Sequence record: PQ785851.1
From: a phage
Direction: 5' to 3' (one strand)
Length of the DNA stretch: 40,865 bases
The notes under the pieces were generated by a model. It was given only the letters and a program-made list of their open reading frames with translations, was not told where the DNA came from and did not search any database. How positions within the stretch are numbered: the stretch's first letter is position 1; each line of letters begins with the position of its first letter. The translations under genes and the position numbers were made by a program. Positions 1,246-40,865 of the stretch are shown here, in pieces.

Positions 1246-1896
1246 TTAGAATGTATCGATTTCTTGAGATTGTACTTCAACTTTTTCTTCTTGAACATTC
1301 TTTTGTGCAACTTGCTTAGGTTTTGCAGGATTAAAACCGTTAGTTGCATTAGCCTGAATCTCAGCTTTCCTCTCGATGATGTGAGGCTCGAGCACTAGCC
1401 AGCCTGCTGAATCAAGTGACTGTTTCGCTTCTTTGTAAACATCACGAAGGTCATCAAGCGTATTGCACTTAGCCAAATCCTTCTTAAATGAGTTAATTCC
1501 TTTAACTGCCAGCTGACCATCATCATCTGCTTGGCTTAATCCTAATGCCGCTGTAATTGCGTAACGGCGAGCGTATGTGAGTGATGAGCCATAACCTTGA
1601 GCATCTTGCTTGCTGATTGGGACGATTGTCAGGAAGCTAACCCATTCTCCAGACTCGGCATGGTATACGGTAGTCTCAACCTTAATACGAGAGCTAACAT
1701 CATCATCAACCATTGACTGAAACATTACCAATCCGCTATCCGCCAGGCCCGGCTCAACCGCCGCTAAAACATCATCTAAAGTGGCGTACTTGTTCTTTAG
1801 GTGCGAGTTCTGCTTTGATTTTTCAGCCTTGGCAAACTTTGATTTAGCCTCAAATAACGCCTTCAATACTTGCTTGTTTTGCTCTGAAGTCTTCAT
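1246..1896 (-). CDS. Erf-family ssDNA annealing protein
   Basis: 216 aa; ...SLTYARRYAITAALGL... resembles the conserved Erf core; sits between SSB and a nuclease. Confidence 0.65.
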   Translation of the reverse strand: MKTSEQNKQVLKALFEAKSKFAKAEKSKQNSHLKNKYATLDDVLAAVEPGLADSGLVMFQSMVDDDVSSRIKVETTVYHAESGEWVSFLTIVPISKQDAQGYGSSLTYARRYAITAALGLSQADDDGQLAVKGINSFKKDLAKCNTLDDLRDVYKEAKQSLDSAGWLVLEPHIIERKAEIQANATNGFNPAKPKQVAQKNVQEEKVEVQSQEIDTF

Positions 1897-1926
1897 TACC
1901 TATCTCTCTTTCGTTTTGGTGAGGTA

Positions 1927-1972
1927 ATGATACCCCACCAGTTAACTTTTTCTTTAGCAATTAGTGCTATTT
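1927..1972 (-). promoter_or_regulatory. promoter-like module, conserved 22-bp element family (copy a), reads toward erf
   Basis: Minus strand reads AAATAGCACTAATTGCTAAAGAA, 17 bp, TATCAT, 6 nt, ACCAAAACGAAAGAGAG, ATG. Confidence 0.45.
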
Positions 1973-2938
1973 CAGCAATTCTTGATACTTTTTACTTACC
2001 CACTCAGGAATCATTAAATCTTGCTCTGTAATCCCATTACTGTAACCAGGCCACACATCAAGTTCCTTGCACTGTTTGTATGTAGCCAGTGCTTCAAGAT
2101 ACTGAATGCGCCCAATGCGAAGCTGCTCATCTGTAAGCGTGTAGCACATAGGTAAGTAAGGCTCAGTTTTCTCCTGCGCCAGGAGTCGAACCACAACCTT
2201 GCGCTTCTCGCTGAATGCCTTCACAAACAAATCGCGTTGAAGTGCCATCTTGCAAAGGTATCCATGGTCATAAGCCGACTTACCAAACCATCGAGGGCTT
2301 GCGTCTGCCGTCGTTTTATAGTCAGTAATGTAGACAACGCCATCAACAACATCAACGTGATCAAGCCTAACCTTTACGCCACAACCTAAAATCTCACCAA
2401 AGATGGATAACTCTTTCTGTGCTGTTGGTGAATTAATGACCGAATCGTAAGCTGGAATATTGGTCAGAACCTCGCGCATTGAGATTACCTTGTCGTAATC
2501 TTTCGCAGTAACCAACTCCTTGCCACTAATCAATGCCTCAGCGCTCTCCTGCTGCTCAATTAGCCATTTAACAGGCCAATCCTCGCCAGACTTATACATC
2601 ATCTCCACGAGCTCGTTATAGCCCTCTCCTGACGTACCAGAAACACCAACTTTCTTAAGTGCTGCTGATAAAGCTGTTTGGCTTGTGATCAATCCTTCAA
2701 CTTCGTCAAAGTCAGTGGCTCGCATGTAGGTTGAATCGAAAACCTCGCGCTCTAGCATCATCGTATGACTCAGAGTGCCAAACTTAAGTGCTGCGCTGGA
2801 GTTATTGCGCTGCTTGAATTTCCATTTAGCTGGTGAGGTTGCGAGAATCTCAGCCAGTGATGAGCCAGAGATATGGTCTTGCTCTTCGTGATAAGCCTCG
2901 TTGGTTAGTTCGTCGTTCGTGTAAACTTTAAATGTCAT
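1967..2938 (-). CDS. putative recombination exonuclease (PD-(D/E)xK, RecB/Cas4-like)
   Basis: 323 aa; ...VVYITDYKTTADA... resembles the DYKT nuclease motif; directly upstream of Erf and SSB. Confidence 0.5.
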   Translation of the reverse strand: MTFKVYTNDELTNEAYHEEQDHISGSSLAEILATSPAKWKFKQRNNSSAALKFGTLSHTMMLEREVFDSTYMRATDFDEVEGLITSQTALSAALKKVGVSGTSGEGYNELVEMMYKSGEDWPVKWLIEQQESAEALISGKELVTAKDYDKVISMREVLTNIPAYDSVINSPTAQKELSIFGEILGCGVKVRLDHVDVVDGVVYITDYKTTADASPRWFGKSAYDHGYLCKMALQRDLFVKAFSEKRKVVVRLLAQEKTEPYLPMCYTLTDEQLRIGRIQYLEALATYKQCKELDVWPGYSNGITEQDLMIPEWVSKKYQELLK

Positions 2939-2941
2939 GGC

Positions 2942-3136
2942 TCAAACCTTAATTTTAACAATCTTGATTGCCTTCAAATCTTCTTCAGTGAAGTATCCTG
3001 TCAGCAGTCCTTTGGCCTCTTCCTTTGTCTCGAACCTGTCGGCCTCACTCTTATCTGTGGTGTATCCAGCCTGGCCGCCAAAGTAGCAGTCGCCGAACAG
3101 TGCATTGTTTTTCTCTTTAATTATGAAGTATGGCAT
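2942..3136 (-). CDS. hypothetical protein
   Basis: 64-aa ORF co-oriented in the early leftward operon. Confidence 0.35.
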   Translation of the reverse strand: MPYFIIKEKNNALFGDCYFGGQAGYTTDKSEADRFETKEEAKGLLTGYFTEEDLKAIKIVKIKV

Positions 3137-3140
3137 GACT

Positions 3141-3326
3141 TTATCCTTTGATGATTTTGATGTGTTCTGATGTTGTCTTTTCTATCCTTGCGCCTGTTTG
3201 CTCCCATTTTTTACCGTATGATAATTCGCAAAATCTAACAGCCATGTCATGTGTAAGGAATATAGCAACAGGTGAATACGTTGGTAGTATTACCGTGTGC
3301 GCTTTTAATTTATCAGGCATTTTCAT
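3141..3326 (-). CDS. hypothetical protein
   Basis: 61-aa ORF, first gene of the leftward operon, conserved leader ATCGAAAGC upstream. Confidence 0.35.
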   Translation of the reverse strand: MKMPDKLKAHTVILPTYSPVAIFLTHDMAVRFCELSYGKKWEQTGARIEKTTSEHIKIIKG

Positions 3327-3358
3327 TTCTCTATATCTCTATGGTTGCGTGCTTTCGA

Positions 3359-3394
3359 TGTGGTAATGATGCCGCATGCTTGCAACCCTGTCTA
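3359..3394 (-). promoter_or_regulatory. sigma70-like leftward promoter
   Basis: Minus strand reads TAGACA, 17 bp, CATCAT, 6 nt (taccac), ATCGAAAGCACG. Confidence 0.4.
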
Positions 3395-4775: not shown

Positions 4776-4996
4776 TGAAGAAAATTATTGTAGCTGCGGC
4801 GTTAGTCCTGAGTGGCTGCTCGTCGATGCCTGAGCGCACTTGTACGGCTATTTATGAATCAGGTGGCGCAGAGTACTCGGTTTATGTTTTCGGTACGCAG
4901 CAACGCGGTGATGAACTCCTGTTGCGTGCTGGATACCCATTATCGTTCCATTACGTTTCAGAGAATAATTTCAAAGACCATGATTGTGGTGGTTGA
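4776..4996 (+). CDS. small lipoprotein (possible Cor/Llp-like exclusion protein)
   Basis: Strong RBS AAGGGGG before the ATG at 4776; signal peptide MKKIIVAAALVLSGC with lipobox LSGC; the track ORF 4721 begins upstream in the same frame. Confidence 0.5.
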
Positions 4997-5001
4997 TAAA
5001 T

Positions 5002-5026
5002 AAAAAGCCCCGAAAGGGGCTTTAGT
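5002..5026. terminator. bidirectional rho-independent terminator
   Basis: Hairpin AGCCCC-gaaa-GGGGCT with an A-run before and T-run after, between convergent genes. Confidence 0.6.
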
Positions 5027-5711
5027 CATATGCTGCTGTGTTTATTGCTGTGATTACATTTCCATTATTTGTCGTGTTTAATACTCGGCCCGCCGCCGTT
5101 GTCGCGGCTGCGTTTATTCTTGTTGTGCTTCCATTGTATCTACACGAGCTGCCAGCTGTTGAGTTGCCTATAATAGGCTGCCCGGTTGGAAGTGTACCCA
5201 TCTGTATCTGGTAGTTTCCAAGTATTGTCGGAACAATCGCGTAACTACCACTAAGTGTTGAGTCAATATTCAAACCCCCACCTGCATAACCTGGAGTGCC
5301 AACAGTCACTAAGTCACTTAAAACCTTTGTTTCATTAGTTAATATCAACTTGCCGGAAGCATCCCAAATCGCCATACCCCAATCAGGAAGATTTTGCTCA
5401 AATATAGCAAATATATAATAAGTCAATATGTATGATTGGTTTGCTGGATTTGTACCCCTAATGTAAACAGTTCCAACGTTAGCTCCATCTCTAAATGTAA
5501 AAGCCGATAGAGCTGTGCCATGTCCTGTGTTTGTTGTTTTGCAAAAAGCTATAACTGGAACGCCAGTAGGGATGCTGACGTACCTTTCAGCAACTTGTGA
5601 ACTACTGACTTTTACAGATTGAATAGTACCCTTTGCATATAATGCAAATGGAGTTGATAGTGGAGTTATGAATGGATTTCCATTCACATCTATAAAAGCA
5701 CCATATGACAT
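5022..5711 (-). CDS. hypothetical tail-associated protein (paralog of the next gene)
   Basis: 229 aa; N-terminus MSYGAFIDVNGN parallels MAEYGIATYDANGN of the adjacent ORF; lies distal to the J-like gene. Confidence 0.35.
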   Translation of the reverse strand: MSYGAFIDVNGNPFITPLSTPFALYAKGTIQSVKVSSSQVAERYVSIPTGVPVIAFCKTTNTGHGTALSAFTFRDGANVGTVYIRGTNPANQSYILTYYIFAIFEQNLPDWGMAIWDASGKLILTNETKVLSDLVTVGTPGYAGGGLNIDSTLSGSYAIVPTILGNYQIQMGTLPTGQPIIGNSTAGSSCRYNGSTTRINAAATTAAGRVLNTTNNGNVITAINTAAYD

Positions 5712-11374: not shown

Positions 11375-12142
11375 TTAGTTCTGATTGGCCTTTGCCTGAA
11401 GGCTTGCTGCCGCACAACCGCCGAAATCCAATTGATTGTTAGCGCCAAATCTAATTTTGCAACTGTTTACCGTTCCGGAGCAGAAGTCTAATGAGGGATC
11501 ACTAACTGGGTTATCATCTTTATCAAAGTATCGGTTTCCAGCATAGGCGCAACCATTGCCGCTACGATACCAGCCACGAGAAGCCCAATAGCAAACTGAC
11601 TGAACAAGTCGCGCTGGAATGTAAATTCCATCCATATCCATTGGGCTACTTAGCTCAAACGAGGCAGTCTTGTAGTCAACCTGCTTTGGTCGCTCAATGA
11701 AGTAAACGAATCGTCGATAGTCCCCATCAGCGATGCTTCCGTCTTCATTGATGTTATCGCGCGTAGTAATCCAGATAGTAACCTTAGCCTTAACTAGACC
11801 ATTGTATTCACGAATCAATGCGCTAATGCGCTGGTCTACGTTTGATACTGTCAGAGTAACCTTGTTTGCCTTGCCGTCAGAAGTCATATTGATACCCGAG
11901 ATACCAAATGGTCGGGGCCCATACTCTTCACCGCGGAAGGTAATTGTCTTCTCTGGCAGTGGCTCTCCGTTCATTTGGGCCAGCATGATTTCCTCTGGCG
12001 TGTATGAGATGTTTTCATTGTGGAAATTATAAACGAGACTACCAAATGCCGTCCCATCAACCTGGATTAGTGTCACAATCTCGCCAGGGAAAAGGCTTTG
12101 CAACTGATTTTCAAACTTTGGACTTAACATGATTTTCTCCAA
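11375..12142 (-). CDS. minor tail protein (lambda L-like)
   Basis: 255 aa; Cys-rich C-terminus (CYW..C..C, C..C); position between M-like and K-like genes. Confidence 0.7.
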   Translation of the reverse strand: MEKIMLSPKFENQLQSLFPGEIVTLIQVDGTAFGSLVYNFHNENISYTPEEIMLAQMNGEPLPEKTITFRGEEYGPRPFGISGINMTSDGKANKVTLTVSNVDQRISALIREYNGLVKAKVTIWITTRDNINEDGSIADGDYRRFVYFIERPKQVDYKTASFELSSPMDMDGIYIPARLVQSVCYWASRGWYRSGNGCAYAGNRYFDKDDNPVSDPSLDFCSGTVNSCKIRFGANNQLDFGGCAAASLQAKANQN

Positions 12143-12166
12143 TAAAAAAAGCCCCTAATGGGGCTT
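12143..12166 (-). terminator. intrinsic terminator / attenuator between M-like and L-like genes
   Basis: Hairpin AGCCCC-taat-GGGGCT followed by TTTTTTT on the minus strand, then RBS GGAG. Confidence 0.45.
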
Positions 12167-12169
12167 AGT

Positions 12170-12520
12170 TTAACGCATTGAGCTAAAGACTTCCACGAAT
12201 TGCATGCTTACAGTCTGAACTTCGCTACTTAATGGCGTTACACTGATGCTATCTTGCTGAATAACAAACAGCTTTAGTTCACCCTGCGGCGTAGTCCACG
12301 CGAAAGGTTTTACGATGTGATCAAAGCAGAAGCTCATTACTGCCTCCCACTCACGACCAACGTAGCTAACCGTGTATGTCCTCTTGTTCGTCCTGTAACC
12401 ACCAGTGCCACGCTGTTGGAAGCCGTTTCCAAATGAAACAATCATAACGTTATTGGAGTTGGTAAACGAAGAGCCACCATTAAGAACATTTAAGCACCAA
12501 TTAAAAGTTTGCAATGCCAT
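12170..12520 (-). CDS. minor tail protein (lambda M-like)
   Basis: 116 aa; immediately distal to the tape measure gene. Confidence 0.6.
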   Translation of the reverse strand: MALQTFNWCLNVLNGGSSFTNSNNVMIVSFGNGFQQRGTGGYRTNKRTYTVSYVGREWEAVMSFCFDHIVKPFAWTTPQGELKLFVIQQDSISVTPLSSEVQTVSMQFVEVFSSMR

Positions 12521-22077: not shown

Positions 22078-23368
22078 TTACAATCTCCTCTTTTGGTGAT
22101 TCTTCTTGTGCGGGCTGCTCAGTTACAATCGAACCTTCACCAATCTTAACCTCAGGGGCTAATGCGCGCAAGGTATCTCGTGCTTCATCTGCGTCCATTA
22201 CTCCGTTAGTGATGAGAGTGGCGATTGAATCAACGTTATTCTTCAGTATTTCAGCGCGGTCCTTCTTCGATTCCTGAGCCAGCGGATTAAACTCAACTGA
22301 CCATTCCTGCTCGGTTGTGATGAACGGGATTAAAAAACCAAGAACAGGGAGTAATTCTTCATTTCTCTTGCGGTCGATTAGTTTATGGAATGTCTCCAGT
22401 GCTGTGTTTTGGCTTGATGATACACCGCCAACGTTACGGCCTTTGAGGATGATTTCATGAATACCGCTCAGGGCAACAATCCTGTCGAATTTCTTATCCA
22501 GGAATCCATCAATCCCGCCAATATCTGAATTAAGAACGCTGTACTCTTCAGACTCTGCATCGATACCAATTGCACGACCAACGCCGGAATTATCATCAAC
22601 CTGAGCCAGCCTTAACCTTGCCGCGCCAAAACCTTCTGCGTCGTCACACAATTCAGCAAGCCCCTTCGCCTTCCATACCGCCTGTTGCTTACGGCGCAAT
22701 AACTGGGTTGCCAGTTTCTCGCACGTCTGATAATCCTTGATTGCCTCCAGTAGGTCAGGAACCAGAACGCTAGCACCCCACCCATCATTGCCGAGACGCA
22801 ATGAGCTAGGAATCTTCTCTCCATCCATAATGTGAACTCGAGAGTAATGCACATCATAAAACGTGGAGCTACCTTCAGGTGTTATGCGGTACGTTAGTGG
22901 TTTTCCAAATCGAACATTGCGAGGATTCTCCTCCTTCGCTTGCACCCTCACCTGACTGCGATCGTATACTCGAAGCGATTCAAGTTCAGCACCTTCACGT
23001 ACCGGACTAGTTAGCGCACGATTATCCTTAACGATAGCCACAATAGCTGAGCCGCCGAACAACCTCGCCCATGACCATGCGTCAGAGATTGACTCGTTGA
23101 CCTTTAGGTAATCCCACCTTGACCAGAATCCACCCTCGTTATCAATGCCATCAATATGGAAACCTGCGGCGATTGCTGTCTCTGGGATGGTATCGACGAT
23201 GCGGCGAACCAGTGAGTTAGACACGTAAAGTGAATCGGCGAATGGTGGCGCAAGGTAAGTGTTGCCGAATTGCCCGTAAATCTCGCTACCATCACTAGTT
23301 CCACCCAGGAACTGCGTGGCGTATGAATCTGCTTTTACCATTTTCTTGCTCCAATAAAAAAGCCCCAT
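22067..23368 (-). CDS. portal protein
   Basis: 433 aa; immediately downstream of the large terminase gene. Confidence 0.6.
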   Translation of the reverse strand: MGLFYWSKKMVKADSYATQFLGGTSDGSEIYGQFGNTYLAPPFADSLYVSNSLVRRIVDTIPETAIAAGFHIDGIDNEGGFWSRWDYLKVNESISDAWSWARLFGGSAIVAIVKDNRALTSPVREGAELESLRVYDRSQVRVQAKEENPRNVRFGKPLTYRITPEGSSTFYDVHYSRVHIMDGEKIPSSLRLGNDGWGASVLVPDLLEAIKDYQTCEKLATQLLRRKQQAVWKAKGLAELCDDAEGFGAARLRLAQVDDNSGVGRAIGIDAESEEYSVLNSDIGGIDGFLDKKFDRIVALSGIHEIILKGRNVGGVSSSQNTALETFHKLIDRKRNEELLPVLGFLIPFITTEQEWSVEFNPLAQESKKDRAEILKNNVDSIATLITNGVMDADEARDTLRALAPEVKIGEGSIVTEQPAQEESPKEEIVIES

Positions 23369-23390
23369 TTAAGAGTCTAGTTTATCACGC

Positions 23391-33784: not shown

Positions 33785-33815
33785 CACAAAAAAGGGGAGC
33801 CAAAAGGCCCCCCGC
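33785..33815 (-). terminator. putative terminator upstream of the lysis cassette
   Basis: Imperfect hairpin GGGGGGCC-tttt-GGCTCCCC followed by a T-run on the minus strand. Confidence 0.35.
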
Positions 33816-33839: not shown

Positions 33840-34016
33840 TTAATCTGCGATAATAAATTCCACCAAAGAGCCATCAATCGGCGCAAGGATGTGAGTCATA
33901 TCGTCGCCATAAATCTTGTAATATCCGTCACCTTGGTACTCTGCATTGTACGGCTGGTTGACTGTAAATGGCAGGGTCTTGGAATTGTTTTTGGTGCAAT
34001 AAATCATTTTAGTCAT
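33840..34016 (-). CDS. small hypothetical protein (58 aa)
   Basis: Hand-translated MTKMIYCTKNNSKTLPFTVNQPYNAEYQGDGYYKIYGDDMTHILAPIDGSLVEFIIAD. Confidence 0.3.
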   Translation of the reverse strand: MTKMIYCTKNNSKTLPFTVNQPYNAEYQGDGYYKIYGDDMTHILAPIDGSLVEFIIAD

Positions 34017-34057: not shown

Positions 34058-34102
34058 ATTATGCCGCATTTCTACGGCATTGGTTATGCAAAAAGTGCTA
34101 TT
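34058..34102 (-). promoter_or_regulatory. promoter-like module, conserved 22-bp element family (copy g)
   Basis: Minus strand reads AATAGCAC-TTTT-TGCATAACCA, 17 bp, CATAAT, 6 nt (caccgc), ATCGAAACTAGAC; overlaps the stop of the upstream gene. Confidence 0.45.
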
Positions 34103-35231
34103 AGCTAAACATTTCTGGGCGACAAGTGAATCGACCAATCTCGCCGAATTTAGGGCTGTAGATTATTACAGACGCCTGGCGATAAGAGCGATAACCACCG
34201 TTTGCGCTGTAAGCATCTTTCGCACCAAGCTGACCATGAGACTCATCAATACCCAAGTTACCTTCTGTAATCGTTTGATGGTGATAATGGCCCGAATGGG
34301 TATAAACATATTCTGATTCACCAAACGCCTTGCGGTGGTCACGTGCCAAAGTTGATAAGCGAGTATCTGGCTTGCGAAGCTCATGACCATGACAGTATCC
34401 AAGAAGCGTCTTGCCAAACTGAGTTACGTGCAACGCAGCAGGTGAAGCATCAACATTTACCCTTGGCTCATCCATATAGAATGCCGCCATTGCTGCACGC
34501 AACCAAATCATACCCGAAAGGTCGTGGTTACCTGGAATAATCTGAACTTCAACTTCTTTATGCTTATCAAGCATCAGGCTAATTGCTCGCCGAGTCGCTC
34601 GAACAGCTACGTAAACAAGCTTATGGTATCGGCTATCCTGGTCCAGCACATGATGACTGGTAGGCGTAACAGCTTCCAATCCATCTGAGTGGAGGAAGTC
34701 GCCACCAATCAGCAATACTGCTTTCTTAGAACAAGGAGCCTTAGCAACAGCGTAATCAAAATAATCATTAAGGACACGCTCTGCGATTTCAGTACTGTAA
34801 TTCTCCCCGCATTCTGCATGGTGCGCCATTGCTCCAATGTGCATATCAAAAACAGGATAAAGACTTAAAGTGTCTTCCCACAAACCAACTCTTAATGCTC
34901 TAGGCTTCTCGCGCGGCAATTCATCAGTAAGCGCTTCAATAGCCTGAAACATCATCTCTTCTTGCTTCTCTTTGTCGATGTCAGACTTAACCCACTGCTG
35001 CTTAATCTCACCATCAGCACCAATAAGACTTGATACACCCTTAACTGCATAACCTTGAGGAATAAGGTTGCTTACATCTCTACCGTGCCCCTCTCCAGCC
35101 TTAGCTAGCTTACTACGACGCAATTCAACATTGCGAATATTCATACCGTACTTCTCTGCTATTGCTTTGTTAGTCATGCCGCTCGCTAGTTCTTCACTAA
35201 GCTGTTCGTTTGTTATTTTTGCAGTTGCCAT
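34101..35231 (-). CDS. HTH-fused metallophosphoesterase (calcineurin-like)
   Basis: 376 aa; N-terminal HTH-like GMTNKAIAEKYGMNIRNVELRRSK; phosphoesterase motifs DMHIG, GGDFLHSDG, GNHD, CHGH, HSGHYH. Confidence 0.6.
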   Translation of the reverse strand: MATAKITNEQLSEELASGMTNKAIAEKYGMNIRNVELRRSKLAKAGEGHGRDVSNLIPQGYAVKGVSSLIGADGEIKQQWVKSDIDKEKQEEMMFQAIEALTDELPREKPRALRVGLWEDTLSLYPVFDMHIGAMAHHAECGENYSTEIAERVLNDYFDYAVAKAPCSKKAVLLIGGDFLHSDGLEAVTPTSHHVLDQDSRYHKLVYVAVRATRRAISLMLDKHKEVEVQIIPGNHDLSGMIWLRAAMAAFYMDEPRVNVDASPAALHVTQFGKTLLGYCHGHELRKPDTRLSTLARDHRKAFGESEYVYTHSGHYHHQTITEGNLGIDESHGQLGAKDAYSANGGYRSYRQASVIIYSPKFGEIGRFTCRPEMFS

Positions 35232-35313
35232 TTTTAAGTTCCTTAATTCATTACGATAAAGTATAAGATAATAAAGCTAAACAGTGGTGTTAATACTACT
35301 AGGGCGGCGTACT

Positions 35314-36384: not shown

Positions 36385-36436
36385 TGAAGTGATAATACAC
36401 CACTTCATCAATTCGTCTTTAGCAATTCGTGCTATT
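36385..36436 (-). promoter_or_regulatory. promoter-like module, conserved 22-bp element family (copy h)
   Basis: Minus strand reads AATAGCAC-GAAT-TGCTAAAGAC, 17 bp, TATTAT, 6 nt (cacttc), ATCGAAACGAAACAC. Confidence 0.5.
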
Positions 36437-36851
36437 TTCTAATCATCTCTGCGAATGCAGCAAGAAAACCATCTCTGCCGTAGGCAACTCCTGCGAAACC
36501 GCCTGATTCCCTTACGCTTTTTAGGAATGACTTTTGCTCATCACTTACTGGGCTAGCCTGTGTTTTCCCAGCCCTCTTTAGCTCTATTGCGCCAAATGGA
36601 TAACTTCCTCGTAATGACTCAGGTATTAGAAATAGGCAGTCTGATACGCCTTTAAGAAGTCCTTTAGCCTGGTCTTTCCTTGCCTGACCAATGCTCTTCA
36701 TTGATTCATTAACTGTGTGCCAGTAAACAACCTGCGGATAGTTATACTTAACCCAATCAGAGCAAAAGATTTGTTCGTCGTCTTCCTTCGGGCATGACTT
36801 CACCGGGCCGCCATAGAACTCGAGGTAGTCAGTTTTGTCTGTAACTTTCAT
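36432..36851 (-). CDS. VRR-NUC domain nuclease
   Basis: 139 aa; ...GVSDCLFLIPESLRGSYPFGAIELKRAGKTQASPVSDEQKSFL... resembles the VRR-NUC core. Confidence 0.55.
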   Translation of the reverse strand: MKVTDKTDYLEFYGGPVKSCPKEDDEQIFCSDWVKYNYPQVVYWHTVNESMKSIGQARKDQAKGLLKGVSDCLFLIPESLRGSYPFGAIELKRAGKTQASPVSDEQKSFLKSVRESGGFAGVAYGRDGFLAAFAEMIRK

Positions 36852-38842
36852 AACAATTCTCCAAAATTCTTAAAAGCGATTATATCTTTACCTTTGCCGT
36901 TTTTTCTATGTGTAACCTGCACTGGTGCGCGGAACTTATCTACGTTCGCCATAATCATTCTCGCATTGCGAAGTCTGCCAATTCTTGTGGCTTCAGCGCG
37001 ATTCTCTATATGAGCAAGGCAGAAGTTCTTCCATAGCACGCTGCAAACTCGATGGTCAGACTCGGGGTTGAAGAATTCCCATGCATTAAACCGATCTCCG
37101 TTATGAGCCATGATATTGTACTTAACAACAATTCCGGTTTGATTCTTACTTAAGCCAACTTGAAAATCATAAACACGAAGGTAATCACCACGACGATACA
37201 TCTTACCTGTAAGGTTAGCATTGGGGTCTTTAAGCATCTCTCCGCACTCTCGACAGACCTTCGCTGCTATATCATTGCGAGTCCCGCACCCTTTTTTGAT
37301 AATAGCCTTTGTCTGCAGGTCTGTAATATCTTCACAAACTGTAAAAGTAAAGAAGTGCTCACATCTCTTTCCGTCAATCTTATTTCCGCATCTACGAGCA
37401 AAAGGCGAATTCTCGTATGAGCAAATTGGGCACACTCGAACCTCTGAATCACCATTGCGTGATGACTTAAACTTCTCGGCCTGAATCTCTTCAATTATTG
37501 GATCAAAGTAAAGTTCAGCCATATCATCAAGTGCGCCAGCAAAGTCCAGGACTAAGTGGTCATCCTTTTTCATACCAATTTCAATATGTTTCTTCTTGAG
37601 AATTCGCATTCCACGACCAAGAAGCTGAATCATTAATGTCAGGCTTCCAATCTTGCGGAGTATGACACTTGTGTCCCACGGAGGCACCGAAACGCCTGTG
37701 GTTAAGCATCCAATCTGAAAAATAATCTTGTACTTTCCGGTCTGGCATTCATCTAGAATTTCCCTTCTCTTCTTCTCACCAGTGGAATCAGTGATTATCG
37801 CGTAAGGATAACCATCTGGTAGAGCAGCAGCCGCTTCATCGCAGTGCATTTTACCAGCGCAAGTTACCAGTGCGGCGTTACGTGTTTCAAGTATTTTGAT
37901 AACGAACCCCATTATATTTTGTGTCATCGTCTGGTTTTCGTGAATCTTTGCAGCCATTGCATCCATTTCTTTTTTGCTGAAATCCTTAACGCCATCACTT
38001 CCATCAGGTGCAAACTCGCTAAGGTCATAACCCAAATCACCAACCTCACCGTAAACAGTTGGAACAACGAATCCCAAATCAACCAGGTAACTGGTCGGAA
38101 CTTGCATTACCGTCTTGCGCCAGAAGCCACGAATATTTGGGTTACTAACTACAATGTGGTCGTTGTTACGATACGGGCTACCAGTCAAGCCGAATATACG
38201 GAGCTCGCGACCATACTTCTCTTTGCAGCGGCGCTTCATTTCAGTGATGATTAGTGTGTACTGCGCACGACCAGTTCCAAGCAATCCGGTATTCACTCCA
38301 TCCTTGAAAACCATTTCGCCTTTCTTGGTGCTCATTTGCTCAAATGTCTCTTCGTTCTCTTCAGCTTCTACGATATCCATGTGGTCCACCATGTGTGCCT
38401 CATCTATTGCGATAACTGCCGGAACATAGTCACCAAGCCCCTTGAACAAGCCGTTTGCCGCCGTTCCTTCACTTGCCACTATAGTTGGGTAGTAAACAGA
38501 TTTAACGTTAAGGCCAGCGCAATATACGCTATTACGGATACCGAAGTTACGGAGTTCTTCAGCATTCTGGCTGATGATTTCTGACTGGCGAGAAAGCACC
38601 ATGTAAGGAAGGCCAAGCTGCTCCATGCGTTTACCAATCATGGCAAGAATGATTGTCTTACCTGCCGATACCGACAGGTCTGCGATGAACGGAGCTTCGT
38701 ACTTAGCAATATTCTTGCCGATTTGGTCGAATGTCACGCACTGGAATGGATACGGCGTAATATCTCCAAACTGATAGTCTCTCTGAATCTGCTTAATCTT
38801 TTCTTGGTCAAAGTTTGCCACTAAGCGTTCTACTGGAAGCAT
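36848..38842 (-). CDS. SF2 (DEAD/DEAH-like) helicase with C-terminal Cys-rich region
   Basis: 664 aa; Walker A ...SAGKT..., Walker B VIAIDEAHMV; C-terminal clusters CPICS...C...C and C..C. Confidence 0.75.
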   Translation of the reverse strand: MLPVERLVANFDQEKIKQIQRDYQFGDITPYPFQCVTFDQIGKNIAKYEAPFIADLSVSAGKTIILAMIGKRMEQLGLPYMVLSRQSEIISQNAEELRNFGIRNSVYCAGLNVKSVYYPTIVASEGTAANGLFKGLGDYVPAVIAIDEAHMVDHMDIVEAEENEETFEQMSTKKGEMVFKDGVNTGLLGTGRAQYTLIITEMKRRCKEKYGRELRIFGLTGSPYRNNDHIVVSNPNIRGFWRKTVMQVPTSYLVDLGFVVPTVYGEVGDLGYDLSEFAPDGSDGVKDFSKKEMDAMAAKIHENQTMTQNIMGFVIKILETRNAALVTCAGKMHCDEAAAALPDGYPYAIITDSTGEKKRREILDECQTGKYKIIFQIGCLTTGVSVPPWDTSVILRKIGSLTLMIQLLGRGMRILKKKHIEIGMKKDDHLVLDFAGALDDMAELYFDPIIEEIQAEKFKSSRNGDSEVRVCPICSYENSPFARRCGNKIDGKRCEHFFTFTVCEDITDLQTKAIIKKGCGTRNDIAAKVCRECGEMLKDPNANLTGKMYRRGDYLRVYDFQVGLSKNQTGIVVKYNIMAHNGDRFNAWEFFNPESDHRVCSVLWKNFCLAHIENRAEATRIGRLRNARMIMANVDKFRAPVQVTHRKNGKGKDIIAFKNFGELL

Positions 38843-38938: not shown

Positions 38939-39421
38939 ATGAATGCAGTTGATAAGCGAACCATTAACGGCAATAACGGAACTGTCCGCACTGAAGACAA
39001 AAAACAACGAAAACGACCATCGGGTTACTACGTTTTAAAAGATGAAGTAAGAGCCGGGCTACGCGCGCGACTGGAGATTGTTCTTGATTTCTACGGTACA
39101 AAGGCGAACATCGCAAAGCAGTTAAATGTGTCCAACCAAGCTGTATCGGAATGGTTTAACCGCGGTATGATTTCGGCTCGAGGGGCTCAGCGAGCACATA
39201 ATGCGTACAAGCGAAATAAGGAGGGATTTCGAGCTACATTCTGCCGACCAGACCTGCAATTCGACGGAAACGGAAAACCGCTAACACTTCGATGCAAGAA
39301 GCGCCATATGCTTCGCGTAGTTACCGATGCAGAACTAGCAACAAAGCCACCCTGTCGACCATGGCGAAAGAATAAGATTGCCAACGAAGCCGCACGAAAA
39401 GCTAAAGAAAGATCTGAATGA
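38939..39421 (+). CDS. Cro/CI-type HTH DNA-binding protein with basic C-terminal extension
   Basis: 160 aa; HTH-like ...GTKANIAKQLNVSNQAVSEWFNRGMIS...; RBS GAGGTGA. Confidence 0.5.
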   Translation: MNAVDKRTINGNNGTVRTEDKKQRKRPSGYYVLKDEVRAGLRARLEIVLDFYGTKANIAKQLNVSNQAVSEWFNRGMISARGAQRAHNAYKRNKEGFRATFCRPDLQFDGNGKPLTLRCKKRHMLRVVTDAELATKPPCRPWRKNKIANEAARKAKERSE

Positions 39422-40430: not shown

Positions 40431-40454
40431 TTTTAGCAAATTGTGCTATTTTAC
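40431..40454. promoter_or_regulatory. inverted copy (i) of the conserved 22-bp element, upstream of the tail-fibre gene
   Basis: Plus strand reads TTTAGCAAATTGTGCTATTTT; a TG-n-TATTTT extended -10 lies 19 nt before the ATG at 40471. Confidence 0.35.
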
Positions 40455-40470
40455 AAATGGAGACCTTACA

Positions 40471-40865
40471 ATGGCAATTTATGACGCTGGAACAGCCAGC
40501 CTGGCAGCTAACGGCACTGTAACTGGTGTTGGGACTACCTGGATGGCTCCGCTTACGCTGATTCGTGTTGGCGCCACTATTGTTTTCAAGACTGAACCAG
40601 TGAAGATTTACACTATCTCTGAAATCATCAGCGACACGCAGATTAATGTTTACAACCCTAATTCTGAAACCGTTGCTGCTGGAACTGGTTACGCCATTCT
40701 TCTTCATGATGGTATTACAGTTCAGGGTTTGGCACAGGACGTAGCCGAGACGCTTAGATTTTATCAGTCAAATAATTATGTGAGCGGTGGTGATGATGGG
40801 AATGTAAAATTAGAGAACGGAGGAACAGGAGCTAGTACAGCACCTGAAGCGCGTAACAACCTCGG
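40471..40865 (+). CDS. tail fibre-like protein, N-terminal part (continues into 1..743 across the circular junction)
   Basis: ATG at 40471 with RBS GGAG; ORF runs off the window end in the same frame as the open frame at the window start. Confidence 0.5.
   Translation, partial: MAIYDAGTASLAANGTVTGVGTTWMAPLTLIRVGATIVFKTEPVKIYTISEIISDTQINVYNPNSETVAAGTGYAILLHDGITVQGLAQDVAETLRFYQSNNYVSGGDDGNVKLENGGTGASTAPEARNNL

Follow-up and report, generated by a model that had tools for sequence, protein, structure and literature searches.

Phage T5 A1 is a predicted metallophosphatase that is reported to be both necessary and sufficient for degradation of host DNA, and it resembles double-strand break repair nucleases and polymerase proofreading subunits (2026 preprint, 10.64898/2026.04.02.716235). 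The Mre11-type gp46/47 of T4 contributes, as cited in 10.64898/2026.04.06.716658, both to host DNA breakdown and to replication/recombination processing. The phages T1 and TLS also degrade the host genome and reuse its nucleotides, the responsible products being unidentified and listed as an open question in the 2024 TLS reannotation, which calls TLS gp66 a "proof-reading exonuclease" (PMC11447400).

The gene considered here lies in a window of 40,865 nucleotides (PQ785851.1; by window we mean the whole stretch of DNA analyzed) from a T1-like phage whose best annotated relative is Guelphvirus EC3a of the Drexlerviridae. Bases 1-49 of the window are identical to 40817-40865, indicating a circularly closed (or terminally redundant) assembly, and the phage genome, at roughly 40.8 kb, is somewhat smaller than the 44-46.5 kb of its closest relatives. 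A minus-strand open reading frame (ORF) of 376 aa runs over 34101-35231, from an ATG start to a TAA stop at 34101-34103. Because a 99%-identical database protein exists (Escherichia phage vB_EcoS_IME542, the nearest match, E=1.8e-251) and residues are invariant in a 101-sequence alignment, sequence comparison supports a real gene and not a chance ORF. Its features, with invariance referring to the 101 aligned sequences, are as follows.

34101..35231, minus strand: complete ORF of a predicted helix-turn-helix (HTH)-metallophosphoesterase, member of PHROG 704
35239..35244, minus strand: Shine-Dalgarno-like AAGGAA, 7 nt upstream of the ATG
35100..35210, minus strand: predicted three-helix HTH of the resolvase/LuxR (GerE)/sigma region 4 type, residues 8-44, with the probable recognition helix at 32-44 (IRNVELRRSKLAK)
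35052..35099, minus strand: lower-confidence linker (pLDDT 75-78), residues 45-60, family consensus G.SPEHDM..VP.G in the alignment
34923..35051, minus strand: family-specific beta-hairpin and long helix, residues 61-103, consensus KG.STLY..DG....QWVK, W80 invariant
34122..34868, minus strand: predicted calcineurin-like metallophosphoesterase core, nuclease-type, residues 122-370
34833..34847, minus strand: motif I, DMHIG, residues 129-133, D129 and H131 invariant
34680..34706, minus strand: motif II, GGDFLHSDG, residues 176-184, G177 and D178 invariant, H181 in at least 90%
34521..34532, minus strand: motif III, GNHD, residues 234-237, N235 and H236 invariant
34383..34394, minus strand: motif IV, CHGH, residues 280-283, H281 invariant
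34281..34298, minus strand: motif V/VI, HSGHYH, residues 312-317, G314 and H317 invariant, H315 in at least 90%

The gene closes a minus-strand series in which an SF2 helicase (36848-38842), a VRR-NUC protein (36432-36851), and five small ORFs precede it. Downstream of it lie a DUF7244 SH3-like ORF (33840-34016), a terminator-like hairpin, and the holin, endolysin, and spanin genes, a placement before the lysis cassette that is found in 508 of 522 Drexlerviridae. The DUF7244 ORF, on the minus strand between the phosphoesterase and holin genes, encodes a standalone SH3-like protein of 58 aa (Pfam E=3e-29; PHROG 4788), and a 2026 paper counts this protein among the shell components of the lysis module of the Drexlerviridae, in 188 of 522 phages. 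GC-rich hairpins with a T run, of the AAAAAGCCCC...GGGGCTTT type, stand at operon ends at 732-770, 4990-5028, 12134-12172, 23346-23384, and 33794-33813. These recurrent elements are probable intrinsic terminators that divide the genome into short transcription units, and in T1, terminators have reportedly been proposed to do the same.

The original prediction credited the ORF with a full set of calcineurin-like phosphoesterase motifs, and each of them is located at the residues given above. Together they reproduce the ligand motifs of PF00149 (DxH, GD, GNH(D/E), H, and GHxH), all present, in order, and invariant or conserved in at least 90% of the 101 homologs. Motif II places H181 three residues after the aspartate, the spacing of the "GDLFH" motif of Mre11, and the core is in this respect nuclease-type, with the GDxxH histidine of Mre11/SbcD. 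An AlphaFold2 model built with the 101-sequence alignment (pLDDT 93.8, pTM 0.84) has a phosphoesterase core at about residues 122-370 with the metallophosphoesterase fold of the PF00149 superfamily, and this predicted catalytic domain is nearest in fold to the exonuclease subunit DP1 of PolD, SbcD, and Mre11. The PF00149 model itself gives 19.0 bits (E=0.002), under its gathering cutoff of 21.5, and the precomputed Pfam entry is "-" for all listed relatives. Direct Pfam and NCBIfam scans returned sub-threshold matches or none, and the whole protein found no match among PDB sequences even at an E of 10. PHROG 704 is too divergent for the PF00149 model, and its membership of the superfamily rests on motifs and fold.

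The part that precedes the core is about 120 residues long, somewhat more than the roughly 100 first proposed, and it does contain the HTH-like segment claimed for it (residues 18-41), together with a linker, a conserved hairpin, and a helix, making it more than an HTH alone. In the AlphaFold2 model, helices span residues 8-16, 21-27, and 32-44, the beta-hairpin spans 61-85, and a further helix spans 87-103, with a dip in pLDDT to 75-78 at about residues 41-60. The first three helices form a predicted tri-helical HTH of the LuxR/GerE or resolvase type, which is nearest to resolvase and LuxR-type HTHs and superposes on them at 1.5-1.9 A over 44-45 residues. Sequence profiles point the same way at lower strength, with DeoR, GerE, NarL, FixJ, and Hin appearing at marginal E-values when the N-terminal profile is compared with PDB sequences and with GerE, FixJ, UhpA, NarL, and Hin as sub-threshold sequence matches, Pfam and NCBIfam scans included. 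The HTH falls under every curated family threshold (GerE, 13.0 versus 23.5 bits; HTH_24, 12.1 versus 21.9 bits), and the hairpin-helix element gave no consistent match to any known domain. Whereas the HTHs of LuxR/GerE proteins and serine resolvases lie C-terminal to a receiver or recombinase domain, the one described here lies N-terminal to an enzyme.

This arrangement is widespread. PHROG 704, named "DNA repair exonuclease," aligns to residues 4-375 over positions 2-389 of its 390-position profile (E=6.1e-147). Homologs were found by tblastn in 2045 of 50,697 phage records (about 4%), 1749 of them covering at least 80% of the protein, and an exhaustive HMMER search of 1.84 billion cluster representatives (50% identity) matched 4578 clusters at E<=1e-3 and 989 at E<=1e-30, nearly all of 370-420 aa. 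The family is a core gene of the Drexlerviridae, and orthologs in T1, TLS (gp66, probably a PHROG 704 member), Rtp, EC3a (gp29), Kagunavirus, Jersey-like phages, and the temperate phage mEp515 are homologous from end to end, including the HTH, the hairpin, and the catalytic motifs. The window protein shows no structural difference from the family and is a typical member of it. A hidden Markov model of the N-terminal 110 residues matches 147 of the 149 best representatives (the 2 misses are fragments, and 132 of the matches reach the HTH), and the 101-sequence alignment carries a family-wide HTH signature, "G....AA..LG," followed by the conserved "P.G...KG.STLY..DG....QWVK." Some orthologs have already been named "winged helix-turn-helix domain-containing protein" by NCBI. 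Since the N-terminal module is present in nearly all representatives and its signature runs through the whole alignment, the HTH is, as judged from sequence, the normal form of PHROG 704 and not an unusual fusion. The design of an HTH joined to a nuclease-type phosphoesterase thus stands, whereas the abnormality that had been read into it does not. Two findings had been named as speaking against the original prediction, namely, absence of an HTH fold and presence of the N-terminal region as a standard part of the family; the former is contradicted by the predicted three-helix HTH, and the latter is what the representatives show. The gene is accordingly an ordinary member of an already known, catalogued family, the name of which is itself a prediction from resemblance to SbcD and DP1.

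The comparison with T5 A1 is instructive. The structural neighbors reported for T5 A1 are those found for the window protein, and the A1 family displays the motifs DxH, NHD, and GHxH (GDIH, SNHD, HGH, and GHTH). Many A1 relatives, 46-48% identical to T5 A1, carry an N-terminal HTH of the HTH_7/HTH_23/GerE (resolvase-like) type at about residues 8-42, and an N-terminal HTH followed by a metallophosphoesterase-type core is therefore common to these relatives and the window protein. Profile comparison by hhalign is weak, with a probability of 25% for PHROG 704 against A1 at full length and of 42% after trimming to the catalytic part and 65% after trimming to the N-terminal part, and the weak cross-matches, which involve the HTH and the "NHD..WL" motif, are colinear. 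No entry named A1 or of A1's length was among the top 50 in a Foldseek search of viral predicted structures. T5 A1 differs in being longer (556 aa), its N-terminal module and catalytic core being separated by about 150-200 additional residues, and in acting with a separate DNA-binding partner, A2. As a candidate relative of the window protein's N terminus, A2 was rejected (0.8% probability in an N-terminal profile comparison). PHROG 704 and the A1 family thus have an architecture and a superfamily in common, and T5 A1 stands as an analog and, at most, a remote relative within the superfamily. T5 A1 itself is encoded at 1706-3376 of its record (L007), and the HTH-bearing A1 relatives P0342, P0344, P0345, P0372, and P0384 come from contigs of about 45-150 kb; A1-like proteins are therefore not confined to T5-like genomes.

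Sequence identity to Mre11, SbcD, and T4 gp47 is 14-18%, and unlike these proteins, the window protein has the N-terminal HTH-hairpin module. An Mre11-type C-terminal capping domain was not found, the AlphaFold2 model ending with the core strands 353-370, and no Rad50/SbcC/gp46-type ATPase was found among window ORFs of at least 100 aa, in ten neighboring proteins compared with PHROGs, or in the annotated EC3a region. The archaeal PolD small subunit DP1, a 3'-5' proofreading exonuclease, is 12% identical and has an OB fold where the window protein has an HTH, a hairpin, and a helix; neither DP2 nor another DNA polymerase was found in the phage (window ORFs of at least 100 aa; ten neighbors compared with PHROGs).

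Outside the window, the neighbors of the gene vary and are mostly DNA-metabolism genes. A single-stranded DNA-binding protein and an endonuclease adjoin the ortholog of Vibrio phage K121, an AAA_24 ATPase and a DUF3799 protein lie near it on one metagenomic contig, and a polynucleotide kinase and a dNMP kinase are its neighbors in Yersinia phage 39. Lysis genes lie near the ortholog in several lineages. In Kagunavirus, the ortholog stands antisense within the tail module, which is an odd site for a DNA-metabolism gene. In Escherichia phage BUCT789 (Kagunavirus; L005, 21313-22443), a short antisense island made up of the ortholog and three small ORFs separates the tail tube from the tail assembly chaperone genes. 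A chromosomal copy is present in 17 of 5426 complete E. coli genomes. Two lambdoid-type E. coli prophages at ogt/fnr (L009, 11647-12765; L010, 8647-9765) carry a full-length ortholog beside a DnaB-type helicase, in the order LexA-family repressor, Cro-like HTH, HTH_36/DnaD_N protein, Rha/ANT, ortholog, DnaB-type replicative helicase, and NinB. The temperate E. coli ortholog shows 56% identity across its full length (E=7e-153), and identity within the temperate set is 56-58%. The isolated temperate phage mEp515 (L017, 6001-7131) has a like layout, with a homing endonuclease gene between the ortholog and the helicase.

Four records filed as plasmids also hold a homolog (Methylobacterium, L015; Sulfitobacter, L016; Paraclostridium, CP124687; E. 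coli, CP088689). They are phage-sized (44-50 kb), and the Methylobacterium and Sulfitobacter records (46-50 kb) have lysozyme and other phage-type genes and are probably phage genomes or phage-plasmids. The copy filed under Paraclostridium bifermentans, 60.6% identical and possibly a contaminant, is similar to those of Klebsiella T1-like phages.

Four other functions were weighed, and all of them are less well supported than that of an HTH-anchored nuclease. In Clostridium thermocellum Pnkp, a metallophosphoesterase module acts in end healing with a polynucleotide kinase, and the phage enzyme could likewise strip broken RNA or DNA of 2',3'-cyclic or 3'-phosphates in company with such a kinase, repairing defense-cut tRNA or DNA. 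This is improbable, as no kinase gene adjoins the ortholog in the window, where DUF7244 and then lysis genes follow, or in the temperate, Kagunavirus, and Vibrio contexts; the kinase beside it in Yersinia phage 39 is annotated with its own 3'-phosphatase; and a role in RNA repair leaves the HTH unexplained. Generic phosphodiesterases score close behind the nucleases in the fold comparison (MJ0936, 14.1; LpxH, 13.7; YfcE, 13.1). A phosphodiesterase of small-molecule nucleotides could be envisaged, for instance one that abolishes immune signals made of cyclic nucleotides or alters nucleotide pools, its HTH being a localization or interaction module. It would be distinctly improbable, given that nucleases are the best fold matches, that motif II has the GDxxH form seen in Mre11, and that none of the PADLOC defense models matched at E<=1; it would also leave unexplained both a conserved HTH of the DNA-binding type and the DNA-metabolism neighborhoods. 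Protein phosphatases score far lower in fold (PP5, 9.0), and the window protein has neither the GDxxDRG form of motif II nor the close fold match that characterize PPP-type Ser/Thr phosphatases such as lambda PP; least likely of all is a Ser/Thr/Tyr protein phosphatase of the lambda PP (NinI) kind with host or phage proteins as its substrates.

The remaining alternative concerns a repeat that touches the end of the gene.

34084..34101, minus strand: copy of the T1-type 21-nt repeat (ATAGCACTTTTTGCATAA), 2 mismatches to ATAGCACnnnTTGnTAAA, starting on the last stop-codon base
34058..34063, minus strand: -10-like hexamer CATAAT, 20 nt downstream of the repeat and followed by the conserved leader CATCGAAAC (alignment of 12 modules)

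This repeat has been described from TLS, T1, Rtp, and Rogue1, where it was left without an explanation (PMC11447400). In the window, ATAGCACnnnTTGnTAAA occurs 12 times where shuffles lead one to expect 0.76, with 18-nt sites at 1953, 3818, 4575, 16679, 26591, 27508, 29217, 30027, 34084, 36418, 38909, and 40432. The first 11 point toward the following gene, and at about 20 nt beyond the repeat, 11 of the 12 modules show a -10-like hexamer, with a conserved CATCGAAACGAAA leader. A hairpin, with no obvious -10, comes after the copy at 40432. The TTGnTA of the repeat, about 22 nt from the -10, is too far away for a normal -35, no canonical -35 is seen, and the palindrome TAGCA-N5-TGCTA is centered near -42, as in a class II activator site. 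That the stop codon is embedded in a promoter-like module, as first proposed, is borne out, and a like overlap of repeat and stop codon occurs in EC3a (L001, position 7131). This copy forms part of the promoter-like module of the DUF7244 and lysis genes that lie downstream, and it is not connected with the function of the protein.

It could nonetheless be speculated that the protein is the transcription factor of these promoters, its HTH binding ATAGCACnnnTTGnTAAA and switching on middle/late genes with the enzyme domain as an auxiliary. The number of modules with a -10-like hexamer and no canonical -35, the listing of the repeat's function as an open question in PMC11447400, the copy on the gene's own stop codon, and the frequent location of the gene at the early/late boundary beside lysis genes would all fit. 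We regard it as very unlikely, as the repeat tracks the Drexlerviridae genome type rather than the gene and the invariant catalytic residues indicate an enzyme. Binding of the repeat by the HTH is further disfavored because the repeat does not occur in the 13-24 kb surrounding the temperate orthologs, despite a very similar HTH there (IAEKYGM..RNVE). Nor does it occur in the genomes of Kagunavirus and the Yersinia phage, where the recognition helices have diverged, which makes these genomes uninformative. Another candidate binder is present in the window, namely, the Cro-like PHROG 2856 regulator at 38939-39421. This plus-strand ORF of 160 aa belongs to a family named "transcriptional regulator," has a sub-threshold Cro-like HTH, and is divergent from the helicase operon.

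The protein is on balance, with a likelihood a little above even, an HTH-anchored DNA nuclease of phage DNA metabolism that resembles Mre11, SbcD, and PolD DP1. The gene would be expressed from an early replication/recombination operon comprising the helicase, VRR-NUC, small ORF, and phosphoesterase genes. The flexibly linked N-terminal HTH would keep the enzyme on duplex DNA, which we infer to be the substrate, while the phosphoesterase domain would hydrolyze DNA phosphodiester bonds with two metal ions, bound by D129, H131, D178, N235, H281, H315, and H317 and assisted by H236 and H181. In the infected cell, such an activity may serve end or branch processing for recombination-dependent replication, breakdown of the host chromosome for nucleotide recycling, or both. 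A main role in host DNA breakdown and a main role in replication/recombination processing receive roughly equal weight, each as a tentative possibility, and because T4 gp46/47 contributes to both, the two need not exclude each other. The position of the temperate orthologs next to DnaB speaks against the family at large serving as an indiscriminate host-killing DNase. The dNMP kinase and polynucleotide kinase neighbors, the T5 A1 precedent, and the gap in accounting for host degradation by T1 argue for host DNA breakdown in the virulent members.

Taken further, and as a doubtful though conceivable extension, PHROG 704 could be the host-chromosome DNase of T1-like phages, forming with T5 A1 one ancient class of HTH-anchored metallophosphoesterase DNases with which virulent phages would take the host nucleoid apart and feed nucleotide salvage, temperate relatives having recruited the enzyme into the replication module. 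A DNase that feeds nucleotide salvage would account for the neighboring dNMP kinase and polynucleotide kinase genes. Escape mutants of T1-like phages do not feature in the papers on Metis, PUA-Cal-HAD, ApeA, and PANGU.

PHROG 704 is a very common core phage enzyme for which no published functional study was found in the literature. Because of the open question posed by TLS and of the layout and activity of T5 A1, the gene is a specific, testable candidate for the enzyme with which T1-like phages degrade host DNA. If this is true, classical T1 phenotypes, namely, host DNA breakdown and high-transduction mutants, would be explained, and it would become clear where the DNA-breakdown products sensed by several recently described defense systems come from.
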